64,000 bases of DNA from Deltaproteobacteria bacterium (lineage in GTDB: Bacteria > Myxococcota > Kuafuiibacteriia > Kuafuiibacteriales > Kuafuiibacteriaceae). Under the pieces are notes generated by a model. The model had not been told where the DNA came from, ran no database searches, and worked only from the letters and a program-made list of their open reading frames with translations. This document shows positions 2,288 to 6,395 of this stretch, in pieces. Both the position numbers and the translations under genes were made by a program. How positions within the stretch are numbered: the stretch's first letter is position 1; every line of letters begins with the position of its first letter. The stretch is taken from the NCBI GenBank assembly GCA_040218735.1, contig JAVJQW010000011.1, positions 224,001 through 288,000 of the forward strand, given 5' to 3'.

Positions 2288-3853
2288 TTAGGCGACACCT
2301 TCGGCGGACGCCGGCGGGAGCTGGATGGAAGGCGGCTCTTCGCGGCGCTTCCACTCGAGCTTCACGTTGCGCTCGTCGCAGTGCTCCTCGAACTCTTCGA
2401 ACAGCTCTTGGATGTCCGGGTGGATGTACTCGGCGTTGCGGAGATCGAAGAGGACACGCGCGCCCTCCGGCACCGACCCGAGCACTTCCTTCACCTGCGC
2501 CTTCTCGAGGAACGTCAGGTCCTTCGTCGCGCGGATGGCGACGCGGTCGTCCTCGCGCGCCATGACGATGCTGTTCTTTCGCTGCTCACGGAGCGTGACG
2601 ATCACGCCGACCACGAGGCCGAAGAGCGTCCCGGTGAGCAGGTCCGTGAACACCACCGCGGCGACCGTGAGGCTGAACGGGATGAACTGAACCCAGCCGC
2701 CCTTCCACATCGTCACCCACAGCTGCCGGCTGGTGAGCTTGAGGCCGACGCCGATCAGCACCACGGCGAGCGCCGCGAGCGGAATCGTGTTGAGCACCGT
2801 GCCGAAGAACAGCACACCGAGCAGCAACAGGATGCCGTGCACGAACGCCGACAGACGCGTCTCCGCACCCGCGACCACGTTCGCGGAGCTGCGCACGATG
2901 ACCGCCGTCAGCGGGAGGCCGCCGATCGCACCCGACAGCATGTTGCCGGTGCCCTGCGCGATGAGCTCACGGTTCGGCGGCGAGATGCGGCGGTGCGGAT
3001 CGAGGCGGTCGACCGCCTCCAGCGACAGGAGGGTTTCGATGCTCGCGACGATCGCGAGCGTCACCCCGAGCTTCCACACCGCCGGGTCGAAGGCGGCGGT
3101 GAGCTCCGGCGCGACGATCGAATCGGCGACGGCGCCCACGCTGTTGAAGATCGGCAGCGCGACGAGGTGCTCGTCGAGGAGCGGCTTCACACCGAACAAC
3201 GACGGCGCCAAGAGCGCCCCGAGCGCACCGGTCACGACGACCATCAGCGGCCCGGGAATGAACTTGAGGAACCCGGCCAACTTCTGGATTCGGCCCCACG
3301 CGACCAACACCGCGACACACGCGAGCGTGATGCCGATGATCGTGATGTCGACCGCGCCGAACGCGTCGGCGAGCGCCGTGAAGGTGTTCGCGCCGTCCTC
3401 CTGGAAGAAGCTCGTGTCACCCTCGTAGTCGGCGTCGTAGCCGATCGCGTGGGGGATCTGCTTGAGGATGATCAGCACGCCGATCGCGGCGAGCATCCCT
3501 TTGATCACCGACGCGGGGAAGAAGTGCGCGATGCGACCGAGCTTCAGCACGCCCATCAGCAGCTGCAGCGCGCCGCCGATGACGACCGCGAGGAGGAACT
3601 GGCGAAAGCCGAGCCCCTCGATGCCGTTGGCCACGATCACCGCGAGGCCCGCGGCGGGCCCGCTGACGCTCAGCTCGGAGCGGCTGACGATGCTGACCAC
3701 CAAGCCGCCCATGATGCCGGCGATGAGCCCCGAGAGGAGCGGCGCGCCGGAGGCCTGCGCGATGCCCAAACAGAGGGGCACCGCGACCAGGAAGACGACG
3801 AGCCCGGCGGACACGTCGGCGGCGATGTTCTTGGGTTTCGGGGGATTGGACAC
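2288..3853 (-). CDS. SulP/SLC26-family inorganic anion transporter (possible bicarbonate transporter) with short STAS-like C-terminus
   Basis: AGLVVFLVAVPLCLGIA, SVSGPAAGL, NRELIAQGTGN and VIVRSSAN motifs with many TM helices. GTG start, GAGGAG SD 6 nt upstream. Confidence 0.92.
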   Translation of the reverse strand: MSNPPKPKNIAADVSAGLVVFLVAVPLCLGIAQASGAPLLSGLIAGIMGGLVVSIVSRSELSVSGPAAGLAVIVANGIEGLGFRQFLLAVVIGGALQLLMGVLKLGRIAHFFPASVIKGMLAAIGVLIILKQIPHAIGYDADYEGDTSFFQEDGANTFTALADAFGAVDITIIGITLACVAVLVAWGRIQKLAGFLKFIPGPLMVVVTGALGALLAPSLFGVKPLLDEHLVALPIFNSVGAVADSIVAPELTAAFDPAVWKLGVTLAIVASIETLLSLEAVDRLDPHRRISPPNRELIAQGTGNMLSGAIGGLPLTAVIVRSSANVVAGAETRLSAFVHGILLLLGVLFFGTVLNTIPLAALAVVLIGVGLKLTSRQLWVTMWKGGWVQFIPFSLTVAAVVFTDLLTGTLFGLVVGVIVTLREQRKNSIVMAREDDRVAIRATKDLTFLEKAQVKEVLGSVPEGARVLFDLRNAEYIHPDIQELFEEFEEHCDERNVKLEWKRREEPPSIQLPPASAEGVA

Positions 3854-3855
3854 TT

Positions 3856-3946
3856 CGATCTCCTCACGTCGGAGGCGACCGCGTGCGGACGCCCCACTCG
3901 AACTCGGTGACCGCCGTGGCGGTCGCGCTCAGACGTGAAGGGATCG
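3856..3946 (-). promoter_or_regulatory. Long mRNA hairpin sequestering the sulP Shine-Dalgarno sequence (putative translational attenuator)
   Basis: On the minus-strand mRNA, CGAUCCCUUCACGUC (3946-3932) pairs with GACGUGAGGAGAUCG (3870-3856) at 14 of 15 positions, one being G-U. The stem continues inward through GCGACCGC/GCGGUCGC. Confidence 0.7.
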
Positions 3947-4258
3947 CGGAGGACGGTGGGGCGGCGTACGGTGGACATCGGCGCCCCGGATGCGGACGGA
4001 CTCGCGCAGCGTCAGCGCGGCCGGCGGGCGGATGTCGTGCTGACCGGTGAGGGTCCCCTCCTCGGCCTCATCCGCCGTCTCCTCCGCCTCCGCCTCTCGT
4101 TCATCGACGGGCTCCGACGGTGCCTCATCCCGCTCGGGATGAGACGGATTCGGCGCGGTGCTGAGGCTCGGACCCGAGTCCGGTGCCACCCATGGAGCCG
4201 CCGCCAGGTTCAGCATCATCACGAGGACGAGCTGGATCGCGACTAGGAAGCGGCGCAT
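3929..4258 (-). CDS. Putative leader/arrest peptide (signal peptide, acidic linker, C-terminal RPPR)
   Basis: MRRF followed by a hydrophobic stretch ending AAA, a Glu-rich linker, and the ending HRTPPHRPPRSLHV. Co-oriented, 75 nt upstream of sulP. Confidence 0.7.
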   Translation of the reverse strand: MRRFLVAIQLVLVMMLNLAAAPWVAPDSGPSLSTAPNPSHPERDEAPSEPVDEREAEAEETADEAEEGTLTGQHDIRPPAALTLRESVRIRGADVHRTPPHRPPRSLHV

Positions 4259-4364
4259 TCCGGGGGCCTAGTCTCGACGGCTGGCACGGGGAGTCAACCA
4301 ACAATCGGCCCCGAACCGCCCAGGGGTCTTGCCAACGCTCGAAGCGAGCCCTAAGCCACGCCGC

Positions 4365-6395
4365 ATGCGATTCAAGGTATTCCTCGCCCTCTCTGCGCTG
4401 ATCCTGACCGCCTGTAAGAAGGATGGGGATCCCGCCGCGACGGATCAGTCCGCCGCCGGTGCGAAGCCCGCAGACGCGAAGCCGGTCACCTACGACCAGA
4501 TCCCGCGCGATGCGTTCCTCCGCCTCGCCGCCGCGCACGCGCTTCCGATCTTCTGGACGGCGGACACCAATGGCAATGACACGATCGACGCGGACGAGCT
4601 GGTCGAGATCTGGGGCGTGCCCGGACCGCGCGGCCAGTGGGTCGCGGACGGCAAGCTCACCCCGCAGTTCGACGAGGCCTACCGGACGCTGCTCGCCGAG
4701 CACCAGTCGGGGCCCGACCTGTCGAAGCTCGACGAGGCCGAGAAGACGCGCCGCAAGGCGGTGCTCAAGGAGCTCGCCCAGGGTCGCCCGACCCTCGTGA
4801 CCTCCGACTTCTCCGGCGCCTCCGAGGGTGACAAGAAGGTCGTCCGACTCGTCCTCGAAGCGGCCGAGCTCATCGAGCAGATCTTCGCGCGCCAGCAGGG
4901 CACGGCGGGGATGGAGAACCGAATCCCCGCGGACGACGCCGCGAGCCGGATGCTCTTCTACCGAAACCAGGGTCCGTGGTGTGAGGCGCCCGCGACCGAG
5001 AACGACGACAACTGCTCCGCGGTGTCCCCGCGGCCGAAGCGGATCTCGGGCCTCTACCCGGAGAAGATCCAGAGCGACGACAAGTTCTGCGACACACTCG
5101 CGAAGCACCCCAAGGCGGACGAGCTCATGCACCAGTTCCACGTGGTGCGCACGCAGGGCGACGAGCTGATCGCCGTCCCGTACACGGCGGCCTTCGACAA
5201 GAAGATGAAGGCGATCGCGGCCAAGCTCGAGGAGGCGGCGAAGCACGTCGGCGAGGGTGAGGAGGCGTTCGCCGCGTACCTGACGGCCGCCGCGAAGGCG
5301 TTCACGACCAACGACTGGGAGCCGGCGGACGAGGCGTGGTCGAAGATGAGCGTCCACAACTCGAAGTGGTACCTGCGCATCGGTCCGGACGAGGTCTACT
5401 TCGAGCCGTGCCGCCGCAAGGCCGGCTTCCACGTCAGCTTCGCGCGCATCAACCAGGACTCGCTCGAGTGGCAGAACAAACTCGACCCGGTGAAGACCGA
5501 CATGGAGAAGGCGATCGCGAAGCTCGCCGGCAAGCCGTACAAGGCGCGCGACGTCGCGTTCCACATGCCGGACTTCATCGACATCATCGTCAACGCCGGT
5601 GACTCGCGCAGCGCACACGGCGCGACGATCGGGCAGAGCCTCCCGAACTGGGGCCCGGTCGCGAACGAGGGTCGCGGGCGCACCGTCGCGATGACGAACC
5701 TCTACGCCGACAAGGACTCGATGGACGCGCTCGAAACGCAGGCGAAGTCGCTGCTGTGCAACGACACCATGACGCACTTCATCCGCGACCCGAGCGTGCA
5801 GGTCATGAGCACCGTGCTGCACGAGGCGGCCCACAACCTCGGCCCCGCGCACGAGTACAAGGTCGGCGGGAAGACCGCGCCGAAGATCTTCGGCGGCCCG
5901 ATGGCGAGCATGCTCGAAGAGCTCAAGTCGCAGACCGCGGCGCTCTACTACACCGACTGGCTCGCCGAGCGCGGCATCATCACCGCCGAGCGCGCGAAAC
6001 AAGCGCACGTGCGCGACATGATCTGGGCGTTCGGCCACATCTCGCGCGGCATGTACGGGTCCGACGGCCGCCCGAAGCCTTACAGCCAGCTCGCGGCGGT
6101 GCAGTTCGGTCACCTCGTGAAGTCGGGCGCGATCACCTACCGCCCCGACGAGCGCGCCGCAAACGGCACCGATGGAGGGTGCTTCGCCTTCGACCTCGAG
6201 AAGTTCCCGCCGGCCATCCTCGCGCTCATGACGCGCGTCGCGCGTATCAAGGGCAGCGGCGACAAGAAGGACGCGGAGAAGATCGTCGCGGAATTCGTCG
6301 ATGTGGAAGGCGAGCAGAAGCAGGCGCTCGCGATCATCACCGACCGCTGGCTGCGCGCTCCGAAGGCGAGCTTCGTGTACGCGGTGAAGGAGTAG
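4365..6395 (+). CDS. Dipeptidyl peptidase III (M49)-like zinc peptidase, lipoprotein
   Basis: Lipobox LTAC, GQSLPN, VLHEAAHNLGP, and LEELKS carrying the downstream Glu ligand. Start moved to ATG 4365. Confidence 0.78.
   Translation: MRFKVFLALSALILTACKKDGDPAATDQSAAGAKPADAKPVTYDQIPRDAFLRLAAAHALPIFWTADTNGNDTIDADELVEIWGVPGPRGQWVADGKLTPQFDEAYRTLLAEHQSGPDLSKLDEAEKTRRKAVLKELAQGRPTLVTSDFSGASEGDKKVVRLVLEAAELIEQIFARQQGTAGMENRIPADDAASRMLFYRNQGPWCEAPATENDDNCSAVSPRPKRISGLYPEKIQSDDKFCDTLAKHPKADELMHQFHVVRTQGDELIAVPYTAAFDKKMKAIAAKLEEAAKHVGEGEEAFAAYLTAAAKAFTTNDWEPADEAWSKMSVHNSKWYLRIGPDEVYFEPCRRKAGFHVSFARINQDSLEWQNKLDPVKTDMEKAIAKLAGKPYKARDVAFHMPDFIDIIVNAGDSRSAHGATIGQSLPNWGPVANEGRGRTVAMTNLYADKDSMDALETQAKSLLCNDTMTHFIRDPSVQVMSTVLHEAAHNLGPAHEYKVGGKTAPKIFGGPMASMLEELKSQTAALYYTDWLAERGIITAERAKQAHVRDMIWAFGHISRGMYGSDGRPKPYSQLAAVQFGHLVKSGAITYRPDERAANGTDGGCFAFDLEKFPPAILALMTRVARIKGSGDKKDAEKIVAEFVDVEGEQKQALAIITDRWLRAPKASFVYAVKE

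Follow-up and report, generated by a model that had tools for sequence, protein, structure and literature searches.

A putative membrane-targeted leader peptide with a proline-rich C-terminus upstream of a sulP anion transporter gene, and a large family of small proteins with a similar architecture

Organization of the sulP locus

The window examined here is a stretch of 64,000 nucleotides (nt) from a bacterium of the Myxococcota (Deltaproteobacteria bacterium, GenBank assembly GCA_040218735.1, contig JAVJQW010000011.1, positions 224,001 to 288,000 of the forward strand), and its G+C content is 69.5%. On its minus strand, which carries all of the features described below unless stated otherwise, the window contains a gene for a SulP-family anion transporter preceded by a small open reading frame (ORF) that is considered here as a putative leader for the transporter gene. 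The transporter gene, sulP (2288-3853), begins with a GTG codon at 3853 and encodes a protein of 521 amino acids, residues 11-386 of which match the Pfam family Sulfate_transp (PF00916, E = 1.1e-55); a Pfam scan of the protein reported no match to the STAS domain. The Shine-Dalgarno (SD) sequence of sulP, GAGGAG (3860-3865), is located 6 nt ahead of the GTG. The small ORF (3929-4258) consists of 109 codons extending from an ATG at 4258 to a TGA at 3931-3929 and is separated from sulP by a spacer of 75 nt.

The predicted product of the small ORF can be divided into four regions. Codons 1-25 (4184-4258) specify a basic N-terminus and, after it, a hydrophobic segment, which on hydropathy can be read as a signal peptide or a signal anchor; among windows of 15 residues, the one beginning at residue 4 has the highest hydropathy, with a score of 2.5. 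An acidic spacer follows at codons 42-68 (4055-4135), about 36-62 residues ahead of Pro104, and is in turn followed at about codons 71-95 (3974-4048) by a fast-evolving spacer whose length is kept in related contigs though it is too diverged to align in them. The protein ends in HRTPPHRPPRSLHV, and its proline block is H-R-T-P-P-H-R-P-P-R (codons 96-105, 3944-3973). Within this block R-T-P-P occupies codons 97-100 (3970-3959) and ends 9 residues ahead of the stop codon, and the second Pro-Pro pair is encoded by 3952-3947. A preliminary description of this DNA had recognized the signal-like N-terminus, the acidic linker and the proline-containing C-terminus of the 109-residue ORF, all of which were borne out, and it had overlooked the resemblance of the first proline pair, R-T-P-P, to the RAPP motif discussed below. 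It had also noted that the ORF lacks a cysteine motif, and indeed the ORF in the window has no Cys at all. The leader ORF has no family match in Pfam (0 families at E<=0.1) or NCBIfam.

Evidence that the small ORF is a gene

A large protein collection contains three homologues of the leader ORF, each exactly 109 residues long and 78-81% identical to it. Residues 1-69 and the motif R-[T/A]-P-P-[H/D]-R-P-P-R are conserved among the homologues, and columns 70-95 are variable. The N-terminal hydrophobic segment is identical in the four sequences apart from an F4C exchange, and some homologues possess a single Cys, either in the variable spacer or at this position 4. R97, P99, P100, R102, P103, P104 and R105 are invariant in all four. 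Position 98 is Thr in three of the four, the window's ORF included, and Ala in P0003, which therefore has an exact R-A-P-P.

Nucleotide variation was followed in Logan contigs of four DNA runs aligned to 3700-4400. Sixteen variable places fall inside the leader ORF, and 12 of these are at third codon positions. Between 3986 and 4118 all 11 variable places are at third codon positions, and 10 of the 12 alleles found there are synonymous, the other two being D/E exchanges. The remaining four variable places, which are not at third positions, all lie within the last five codons. An antisense ORF (3935-4246, plus strand) is open as well, but the same variable places correspond to its first codon positions, indicating that the antisense frame is not the conserved one. 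The G+C content at the three codon positions of the leader ORF (0.78/0.53/0.80) compared with that in the neighboring genes (about 0.67/0.42/0.93, with third-position values of 0.92-0.94) is equivocal as evidence for a gene. The homologues together with the third-position substitutions are nevertheless clear evidence that the leader ORF is translated and that selection acts on either the product or the nascent chain, and on this comparative evidence the ORF is almost certainly a real gene.

Wider searches with the ORF itself yielded few relatives. A six-frame search of 41 related genomes gave nothing significant outside the window's own genome (best E = 0.01), and a profile search of 20 genomes from the window's family recovered only the three genomes that had contributed to the profile plus one weak match that was not on the sulP contig of its genome. 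No relative was found in a metagenome scan with the ORF alignment. In one genome of the same genus (G001) the sulP match begins at the contig end, and its upstream region was excluded.

Predicted RNA structure over the sulP Shine-Dalgarno sequence

The minimum-energy structure predicted by RNAfold for 3965-3840 contains a long hairpin of 25 base pairs (3856-3946). The 5' arm of this hairpin consists of the last five codons of the leader ORF, the stop codon and 10 nt of the spacer, and the 3' arm includes the sulP SD sequence. The preliminary description had proposed that 14 of 15 positions at the ORF end pair with the sulP SD region and that the stem extends inward by about 11 pairs, and RNAfold reproduced this arrangement exactly. 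The outer pairs join 3946-3942 with 3860-3856 (five pairs) and 3940-3932 with 3870-3862 (nine pairs, one of them G-U), leaving 3941 and 3861 unpaired, and the inner pairs join 3930-3928 with 3874-3872 (three pairs) and 3926-3919 with 3882-3875 (eight pairs). The bases of GAGGAG are predicted to pair with the ORF end with a probability of about 1. The fold has an energy of -55.5 kcal/mol, compared with -45.97 +/- 4 for shuffled sequences (z = -2.38). An equally stable fold was obtained for 4 of 200 dinucleotide shuffles, so that the long hairpin taken alone is only moderately unusual relative to chance.

The SD sequence has a second potential partner. In a local hairpin (3856-3881), CCUC at 3875-3872 pairs with GAGG at 3865-3862, and this hairpin has an energy of -14.2 kcal/mol when folded alone. 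The local hairpin is also the predicted partner of the SD sequence in a related variant (-13.3 kcal/mol) and when a ribosome is made to mask the 5' arm of the long hairpin. The spacer (3875-3926) contains repeated GACCGC/GCGGUC elements, and one GACCGC can pair with either copy of GCGGUC, giving rise either to the long hairpin or to a pair of local hairpins that includes one hiding the SD sequence, in a layout resembling that of an attenuator. Since the repeated elements permit alternative pairings, a kinetic, attenuator-like switch in the spacer is possible in these models. An Rfam scan of 3500-4700 returned only a chance match to a small nucleolar RNA (E = 3.5), and a consensus scan of 3929-3853 found no terminator-like site in the 75-nt spacer, which is rich in G+C and has no U-run.

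Similar ORFs upstream of sulP in other bacteria

The preliminary description had suggested a search upstream of related sulP genes for signal-peptide ORFs ending in RPP or RAPP, and ORFs of comparable design were found well beyond the window's own clade. Reading upstream of sulP orthologues, as opposed to searching with the ORF, identified leaders in two genomes. In G011, whose sulP is 64% identical to that of the window, the upstream ORF has 92 codons and Pro-Pro-Arg three residues ahead of the stop codon, and in G009 (48% G+C) an upstream ORF of 136 codons ends in PTPPPNR. Leader-type ORFs were then defined as ORFs of 60-200 residues on the same strand as sulP, with PP in the last 12 residues and an end less than 450 nt upstream of sulP. 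Among 80 sulP loci from species-representative genomes, mostly of Bacteroidota and at 44-56% identity, 38 have such an ORF. A further 25 were found in 80 independent metagenome loci, although at least two of these are doubtful and three are identical to peptides of the first set. By comparison, PPP within the last 8 residues is a feature of 41 of the 1074 ORFs of 60-200 residues in the first set, with the leaders counted in.

A common architecture is apparent when 41 leaders, including that of the window, are compared. All have a hydrophobic N-terminal segment, and the tail past the last proline is 2-9 residues long (5 in the window). The distance from the center of the hydrophobic segment to the last proline is 75-117 residues, mostly 80-94, and is 93 in the window. 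Acidic residues account for 0.25-0.36 of the positions located 35-60 residues ahead of the prolines, compared with about 0.1 elsewhere, and the position of the acidic spacer in the window's ORF agrees both with this zone and with the acid-rich zone at -39 to -60 in 142 representatives of the family described next. The window's ORF thus shares the architecture and position of the other leaders, having the N-terminal segment, the acidic zone, prolines 2-9 residues from the stop codon and a location upstream of a gene for SulP.

At E<=1e-3 a profile built from 59 leaders matches 906 representatives of clusters formed at 50% identity, and 82 of these match at E<=1e-10. PPP is present in the last 14 residues of 142 of the best 150 representatives, and the family consensus at the C-terminus is [FY]-[YHF]-P-x-[VI]-P-T-P-P-P-[NED] followed by 2-3 residues. 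In C-terminally anchored columns, which covered -60 to +5 and hence not the N-terminus, high information is confined to the last ~11 residues. The residue ahead of PPP is Thr in 124 of the 142 representatives and otherwise Ser, Leu, Ala, Ile or Lys. All four Pro codons occur at each of the PPP positions in 56 leaders, which argues that selection acts on the prolines and not on a C-rich RNA. The family of leaders with a C-terminal PPP is not represented by any model in Pfam or NCBIfam. The AlphaFold2 model of a leader, based on a 59-row alignment (mean predicted local distance difference test score 67.5), has a transmembrane helix at residues 2-30, a second helix at 35-53 and a low-confidence coil at 54-91, with no globular domain. 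A literature search, limited to one library, found no paper that joins SulP to arrest peptides or describes a TPPPN/PTPPP motif in bacteria, supplements and figures being outside the search.

Genes downstream of the leader family

In the reverse search, the family profile was compared with 301 evenly drawn Bacteroidia genomes. Matches were found in 43 of these genomes (52 matches), and the ORF could be located for 50. The next gene on the same strand encodes SulP, of two subtypes, in 36 of the 50 cases. In three cases it encodes a beta-carbonic anhydrase (Pro_CA; L245 and L252 by Pfam scan, L254 by eye) and in five a small secreted Peptidase_S74 (endosialidase chaperone) protein (L227, which is in G041, L259, L267, L269 and L275, of which L227 and L259 were scanned against Pfam). 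Membrane proteins of ATP-binding cassette (ABC) transporters follow in two cases (L258 and L265) and a Na/H exchanger, after a gap of 451 nt, in one; the remaining three are unassigned or have no next gene. Where the downstream gene is for a Peptidase_S74 protein or an ABC-transporter protein, the leader lies 62-149 nt upstream of it. Two genomes with a leaderless sulP have no member of the family anywhere in the genome. That the family precedes mostly genes for SulP or carbonic anhydrase, and also other genes, suggests that it behaves more as a cis-acting leader than as a dedicated SulP subunit.

The distribution of the sequence TAnnTTTG, which we take to be the -10 promoter element of Bacteroidota, is consistent with a single transcript in which the leader is the first cistron. 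The element occurs within 200 nt upstream of the leader at 28 of the 38 leader-bearing loci and between leader and sulP at one, with a background frequency of 0.63 per kb. At four leaderless loci of the Dyadobacter type (L098, L115, L119 and L121) an ORF of ~215-238 residues that resembles carbonic anhydrase by eye abuts sulP on its upstream side. The carbonic anhydrase neighbors point to bicarbonate as the substrate of SulP. At twelve other leaderless Bacteroidota loci (L081, L088, L090, L093, L100, L104, L106, L120, L123, L128, L136 and L139) an ORF of ~446-460 residues on the same strand is found immediately upstream of sulP, and by eye this ORF resembles a sensor histidine kinase. The leader and the kinase, which share the same position, may be alternative solutions for control of sulP.

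Pairing of the sulP SD sequence near the leader stop codon is predicted at high-G+C loci that use an SD sequence, though by a different sequence at each. In G011 the SD sequence pairs with CCACC located 3-7 nt past the leader stop codon (probability about 0.95), at the high-G+C metagenome locus L158 it pairs with the PPP codons themselves (probability 0.5-0.76), and in the window it pairs with the ORF end as described above. Bacteroidota seldom use SD sequences, and SD-like motifs near the sulP start are present at only 5 of the 38 leader-bearing loci, compared with 7 of 42 leaderless ones. At five Sphingobacteriaceae loci the duplexes predicted between the PPP codons and the region of the sulP start have energies of -15 to -19 kcal/mol. 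A comparison of own with cross duplexes gave a Wilcoxon p of 0.0002, in which the loci are not independent and one sulP start (L063) is probably mis-assigned, and sulP start regions with and without a leader did not differ (p = 0.053). Pairing between the PPP codons and the sulP start was ruled out as a general feature of the leaders, as it is strong at only 5 of the 38 loci.

Comparison with known regulatory nascent chains

SecM, MifM and VemP are regulatory nascent chains in which a signal for export or insertion is joined through a spacer to an arrest element at the C-terminus, and the ribosome stalled on them opens a structure that hides a downstream start. The putative leader resembles them in its comparable three-part layout. 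It differs from them in that their targets (Sec, YidC) act on the nascent monitor and so close a feedback loop, whereas a SulP transporter cannot act directly on the nascent leader, and the input would therefore have to be something else.

The preliminary description had likened the combination of an export signal with a Pro-rich C-terminus to CutF and the RAPP-type arrest peptides, and as far as architecture is concerned this comparison is apt. The RAPP/RGPP-type peptides (ApcA, ApdA, ApdP and CruR) are, like the putative leader, small proteins (<300 residues) with a hydrophobic segment and a C-terminal R-x-P-P that are encoded upstream of another gene. According to the main text of Fujiwara et al. 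(2025, PMC12992588), RAPP/RGPP motifs are found close to the C-terminal end of small proteins that are secreted or membrane-bound and are encoded ahead of a variety of genes, and the arrests they cause resist EF-P. In that text, small residues at the second position of RxPP partly retain arrest, with Ser, Asp and Pro being partly permissive besides Gly and Ala. The Thr at this position in the window is not among the permissive residues reported there, and the window differs further in having a second block, R-P-P-R, after R-T-P-P. SulP is absent from the main texts of the papers on RAPP-type peptides (PMC10987492, PMC12992588), the gene lists in figures and appendices being outside the search. 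A ribosome arrested at R-T-P-P, with its P site at 3964-3962, would halt 18 nt ahead of the long hairpin, and one arrested at R-P-P-R would invade the hairpin.

By analogy of design, CutF of Rhodobacter capsulatus, a member of DUF2946, is the closest known system to the putative leader of the window. A preprint on CutF by Ozturk et al. describes an export signal, a C-terminal PPP with basic residues nearby, and a stem-loop that shields the SD sequence by means of a CTTC anti-SD (10.1101/2022.11.11.516240). That preprint and a second one (10.1101/2025.02.05.636593) report that translation and export of CutF are needed in cis, that the mature protein is not detectable, and that the proline motif alone is not a strong staller, yet stalls conditionally and overrides EF-P. 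The putative leader likewise is short and has the position of a first cistron, and it shares a putative export signal at the N-terminus, a proline-rich C-terminus and an SD-shielding stem-loop predicted in silico, and the 5' arm of that stem-loop has CUUC against GAGG in the place of the CTTC anti-SD. Unlike CutF, it has no CxxxC or other metal motif, and its target is an anion transporter instead of a copper oxidase. The leader ORF gave no match to DUF2946, CzcI or DUF6769 at E<=0.1, and a list of the 25 Pfam families most often matched by the 59 leaders (E<=10) contains none of these three. A protein language-model search placed DUF2946/CzcI clusters as the nearest named neighbors of both the window's ORF and a member of the large family, with scores of 0.90-0.92 and few shared features, which is a lead only. 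Candidate leaders termed uA_LPPP, located upstream of secA, also have a C-terminal xPPP in the leader ORF and differ in their target gene; the main text of the paper that describes them allows that their stalling in vitro may merely reflect the missing EF-P (PMC10987492).

Possible mechanism of sulP regulation

The features described above are consistent with the following model. In the resting state the sulP SD sequence would be locked in the 25-pair helix with the last five codons and the stop codon of the leader. A ribosome that reaches R-T-P-P-H-R-P-P-R and the stop codon would unzip the outer pairs, so that initiation at sulP would be coupled to translation of the leader and would scale with the dwell time of the ribosome, which the proline block may slow. 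The hydrophobic segment and the acidic spacer could interact with the machinery for membrane insertion or export during the time that the ribosome spends at the block, thereby providing a route by which the dwell time might be modulated. Coupling of sulP to leader translation, pausing at the prolines, regulation through export and a sensed signal are all what we infer from the arrangement of the locus. The core of this proposal, that the ORF is a translated, membrane-targeted leader which forms an operon with sulP and couples sulP translation in cis to the passage or dwell of the ribosome, has in our judgment a probability of about 0.5. Should it be a cis-acting leader, a genuinely regulated arrest would be plausible though less likely than not, and any input that might be named, such as membrane potential, pH, bicarbonate or a pulling force acting on the acidic zone, is speculation. 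A broader proposal would unite the window's leader and the [VI]-P-T-P-P-P-[NED] family as a previously unrecognized group of membrane-inserted, proline-pausing sensor leaders that set the levels of bicarbonate or anion transporters, carbonic anhydrases and some envelope proteins, the acidic zone, which would lie inside the translocon or just past it with the ribosome on the prolines, sensing membrane potential or periplasmic pH or bicarbonate through the pull on the nascent chain. This proposal seems rather unlikely.

A number of observations weigh against the cis-acting leader. The preliminary description had looked to covariation for support of the stem, and in the nearest sampled relative this fails, as five substitutions (3933, 3936, 3938, 3942 and 3943) disrupt 4 of the 14 outer pairs without compensation from the two 3'-arm changes (3856 and 3871), and the SD sequence is predicted to refold into the local hairpin rather than pairing with the ORF end. 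This relative is represented by contigs of runs X3 and X5 plus a minor X2 contig, and the variant is partly reconstructed, with differences near the alignment ends unlisted; the covariation test within the clade is limited at the DNA level to the Logan contigs because scans of genome contigs and metagenomes with sulP gave no relative above 56% identity. It had also been proposed that a ribosome on the Pro-Pro codons covers the 5' arm and so frees GAGGAG. Sequestration of the SD sequence by the last codons is indeed predicted; however, when the ribosome masks the RNA as far as 3934 (Pro104) or 3919 (stop codon), the equilibrium fold still hides the SD sequence in the local hairpin, so that in these models release by covering the 5' arm is at best a kinetic statement. 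Spacer structures at the other loci are heterogeneous (mean fold z of -1.8, with 16 of 38 below -2, against mononucleotide shuffles), terminator-like stems appear in 16 of the 38 spacers under loose criteria that are too permissive to interpret, and at the other 33 of the 38 loci the PPP codons do not pair strongly with the start of sulP.

The prolines themselves and the conservation of the rest of the peptide raise further difficulties. PPN serves as a standard EF-P-dependent arrest motif. Starosta et al. (2014), however, report that of the XPPP contexts in E. coli TPPP stalls least and RPPP most, with SPPP, APPP and LPPP weak, which argues against a strong intrinsic arrest in the large family. 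The same text reports RPP as non-stalling in E. coli assays, and this argues equally against a strong arrest at R-P-P-R in the window, where stalling at RPP had been proposed. The ratio of nonsynonymous to synonymous substitution rates (dN/dS) of the leaders is 0.07-0.37 in the 12 of 14 close Bacteroidota pairs in which dS was unsaturated, compared with 0.04-0.11 for sulP. Sphingobacteriaceae-type leaders (e.g., L062, L067, L073 and L118) possess, by eye, a conserved Lys inside the hydrophobic segment. Such constraint on the whole peptide exceeds what a generic export signal or membrane anchor needs. In the same leaders a conserved A-P-V follows the Lys, and the next helix has a Q-L-E motif. 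Finally, the Bacteroidota-type profile gives the window's ORF only 6.2 bits (E = 0.17 among 250 sequences), which is not significant, although the ORF outranks all 245 decoy ORFs of the window and the G009 leader does match (E = 3.7e-5). Given the 6.2-bit score, the link between the window's ORF and the large family is one of architecture and position and not of demonstrated homology.

Alternative explanations

It is quite possible, though short of probable, that the product of the ORF is a small protein, either periplasmic or with a single pass through the membrane, that has its own function, for instance as a partner or regulator of SulP or in bicarbonate or pH homeostasis, with the prolines as a binding epitope and the hairpin serving stoichiometric coupling or mRNA stability. 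The purifying selection along the whole peptide, the retention of the hydrophobic segment and following helix in Sphingobacteriaceae-type members, the co-occurrence of the family with SulP (36 of 50) and the loss of pairing between the ORF end and the SD sequence in the nearest relative would all be expected of such a protein. The Thr, Ser, Leu or Ala that precedes PPP looks like avoidance of stalling, these being weak-stalling contexts that are reported to be over-represented in ordinary E. coli proteins. Against a protein with its own function, the family is also found ahead of unrelated genes (Peptidase_S74, ABC membrane proteins, carbonic anhydrase), its model has no folded extramembrane domain, and in the columns scored (-60 to +5) high information is restricted to the last ~11 residues, while the stretch that joins the acidic zone to the prolines evolves too fast to be aligned within the window's clade. 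The motif, moreover, is always 2-9 residues from the stop codon, which is typical of arrest leaders.

The leader could instead act on transcription, a pause of the ribosome near the stop codon determining whether transcription ends in the spacer, by Rho-dependent or intrinsic termination, in the manner of CruR or TnaC, although this seems very unlikely. There is a precedent in CruR, which according to the CutF preprint triggers Rho-dependent termination (10.1101/2022.11.11.516240). In G009 the spacer ahead of sulP contains a stem that resembles a terminator and has a U-run, and the scarcity of SD-like motifs near the sulP start (5 of 38) also fits control of transcription. The count of 16 of 38 spacers with such stems points the same way but is weak, since chance alone often gives A+T-rich spacers a U-rich tail, and in the window the 75-nt spacer offers neither a U-run nor a terminator-like site. 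That the ORF and hairpin are chance features of an intergenic region with 69.5% G+C is barely credible. Long ORFs are common in such DNA, as the open antisense frame at 3935-4246 illustrates, and both the third-position G+C content of 0.80 (0.92-0.94 in the neighbors) and the hairpin z of only -2.38 would suit this explanation, but the substitutions fall on third codon positions, the homologues are conserved in length, and the same architecture recurs in low-G+C genomes, where ORFs of 100 codons are not expected by chance. A chance origin of the ORF is effectively refuted by the 109-residue homologues together with the third-position substitutions.

Significance of the leader family

Known nascent-chain sensors control the protein-export machinery or metal homeostasis. 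If leaders do act ahead of genes for SulP transporters, which probably carry bicarbonate, and for beta-carbonic anhydrases, sensing by nascent chains would extend to the homeostasis of inorganic carbon and ions, and a function would be assigned to a large set of "hypothetical" proteins of 90-135 residues (906 cluster representatives; 43 of 301 Bacteroidia genomes). The family is a natural series of xPPP[NED] contexts in which the use of EF-P-sensitive pauses in regulation could be studied, and the fixed position of the acidic zone makes the pull of membrane potential on acidic nascent chains testable in a native system. Should the proteins instead have a function of their own, they would constitute a new family of small membrane proteins tied to SulP, which is still unannotated biology.

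Upstream region and neighboring genes

The promoter shared by the leader and sulP would have to lie in the divergent intergenic region (4259-4364), where a scan with the sigma-70 consensus found no promoter-like match upstream of the leader. A terminator-like stem with a T-rich tail is located at 4318-4306, ~50 nt upstream of the leader ATG. The divergent gene on the plus strand (4365-6395) encodes a lipoprotein-like protein of 676 residues with an HEAAH zinc-peptidase-like motif and a sub-threshold match to DUF7897 (E = 4.4e-4). On the other side of sulP, a gene for an oxidoreductase of the Gfo/Idh/MocA family (1247-2260) begins 27 nt past the sulP stop codon and may share its transcript.

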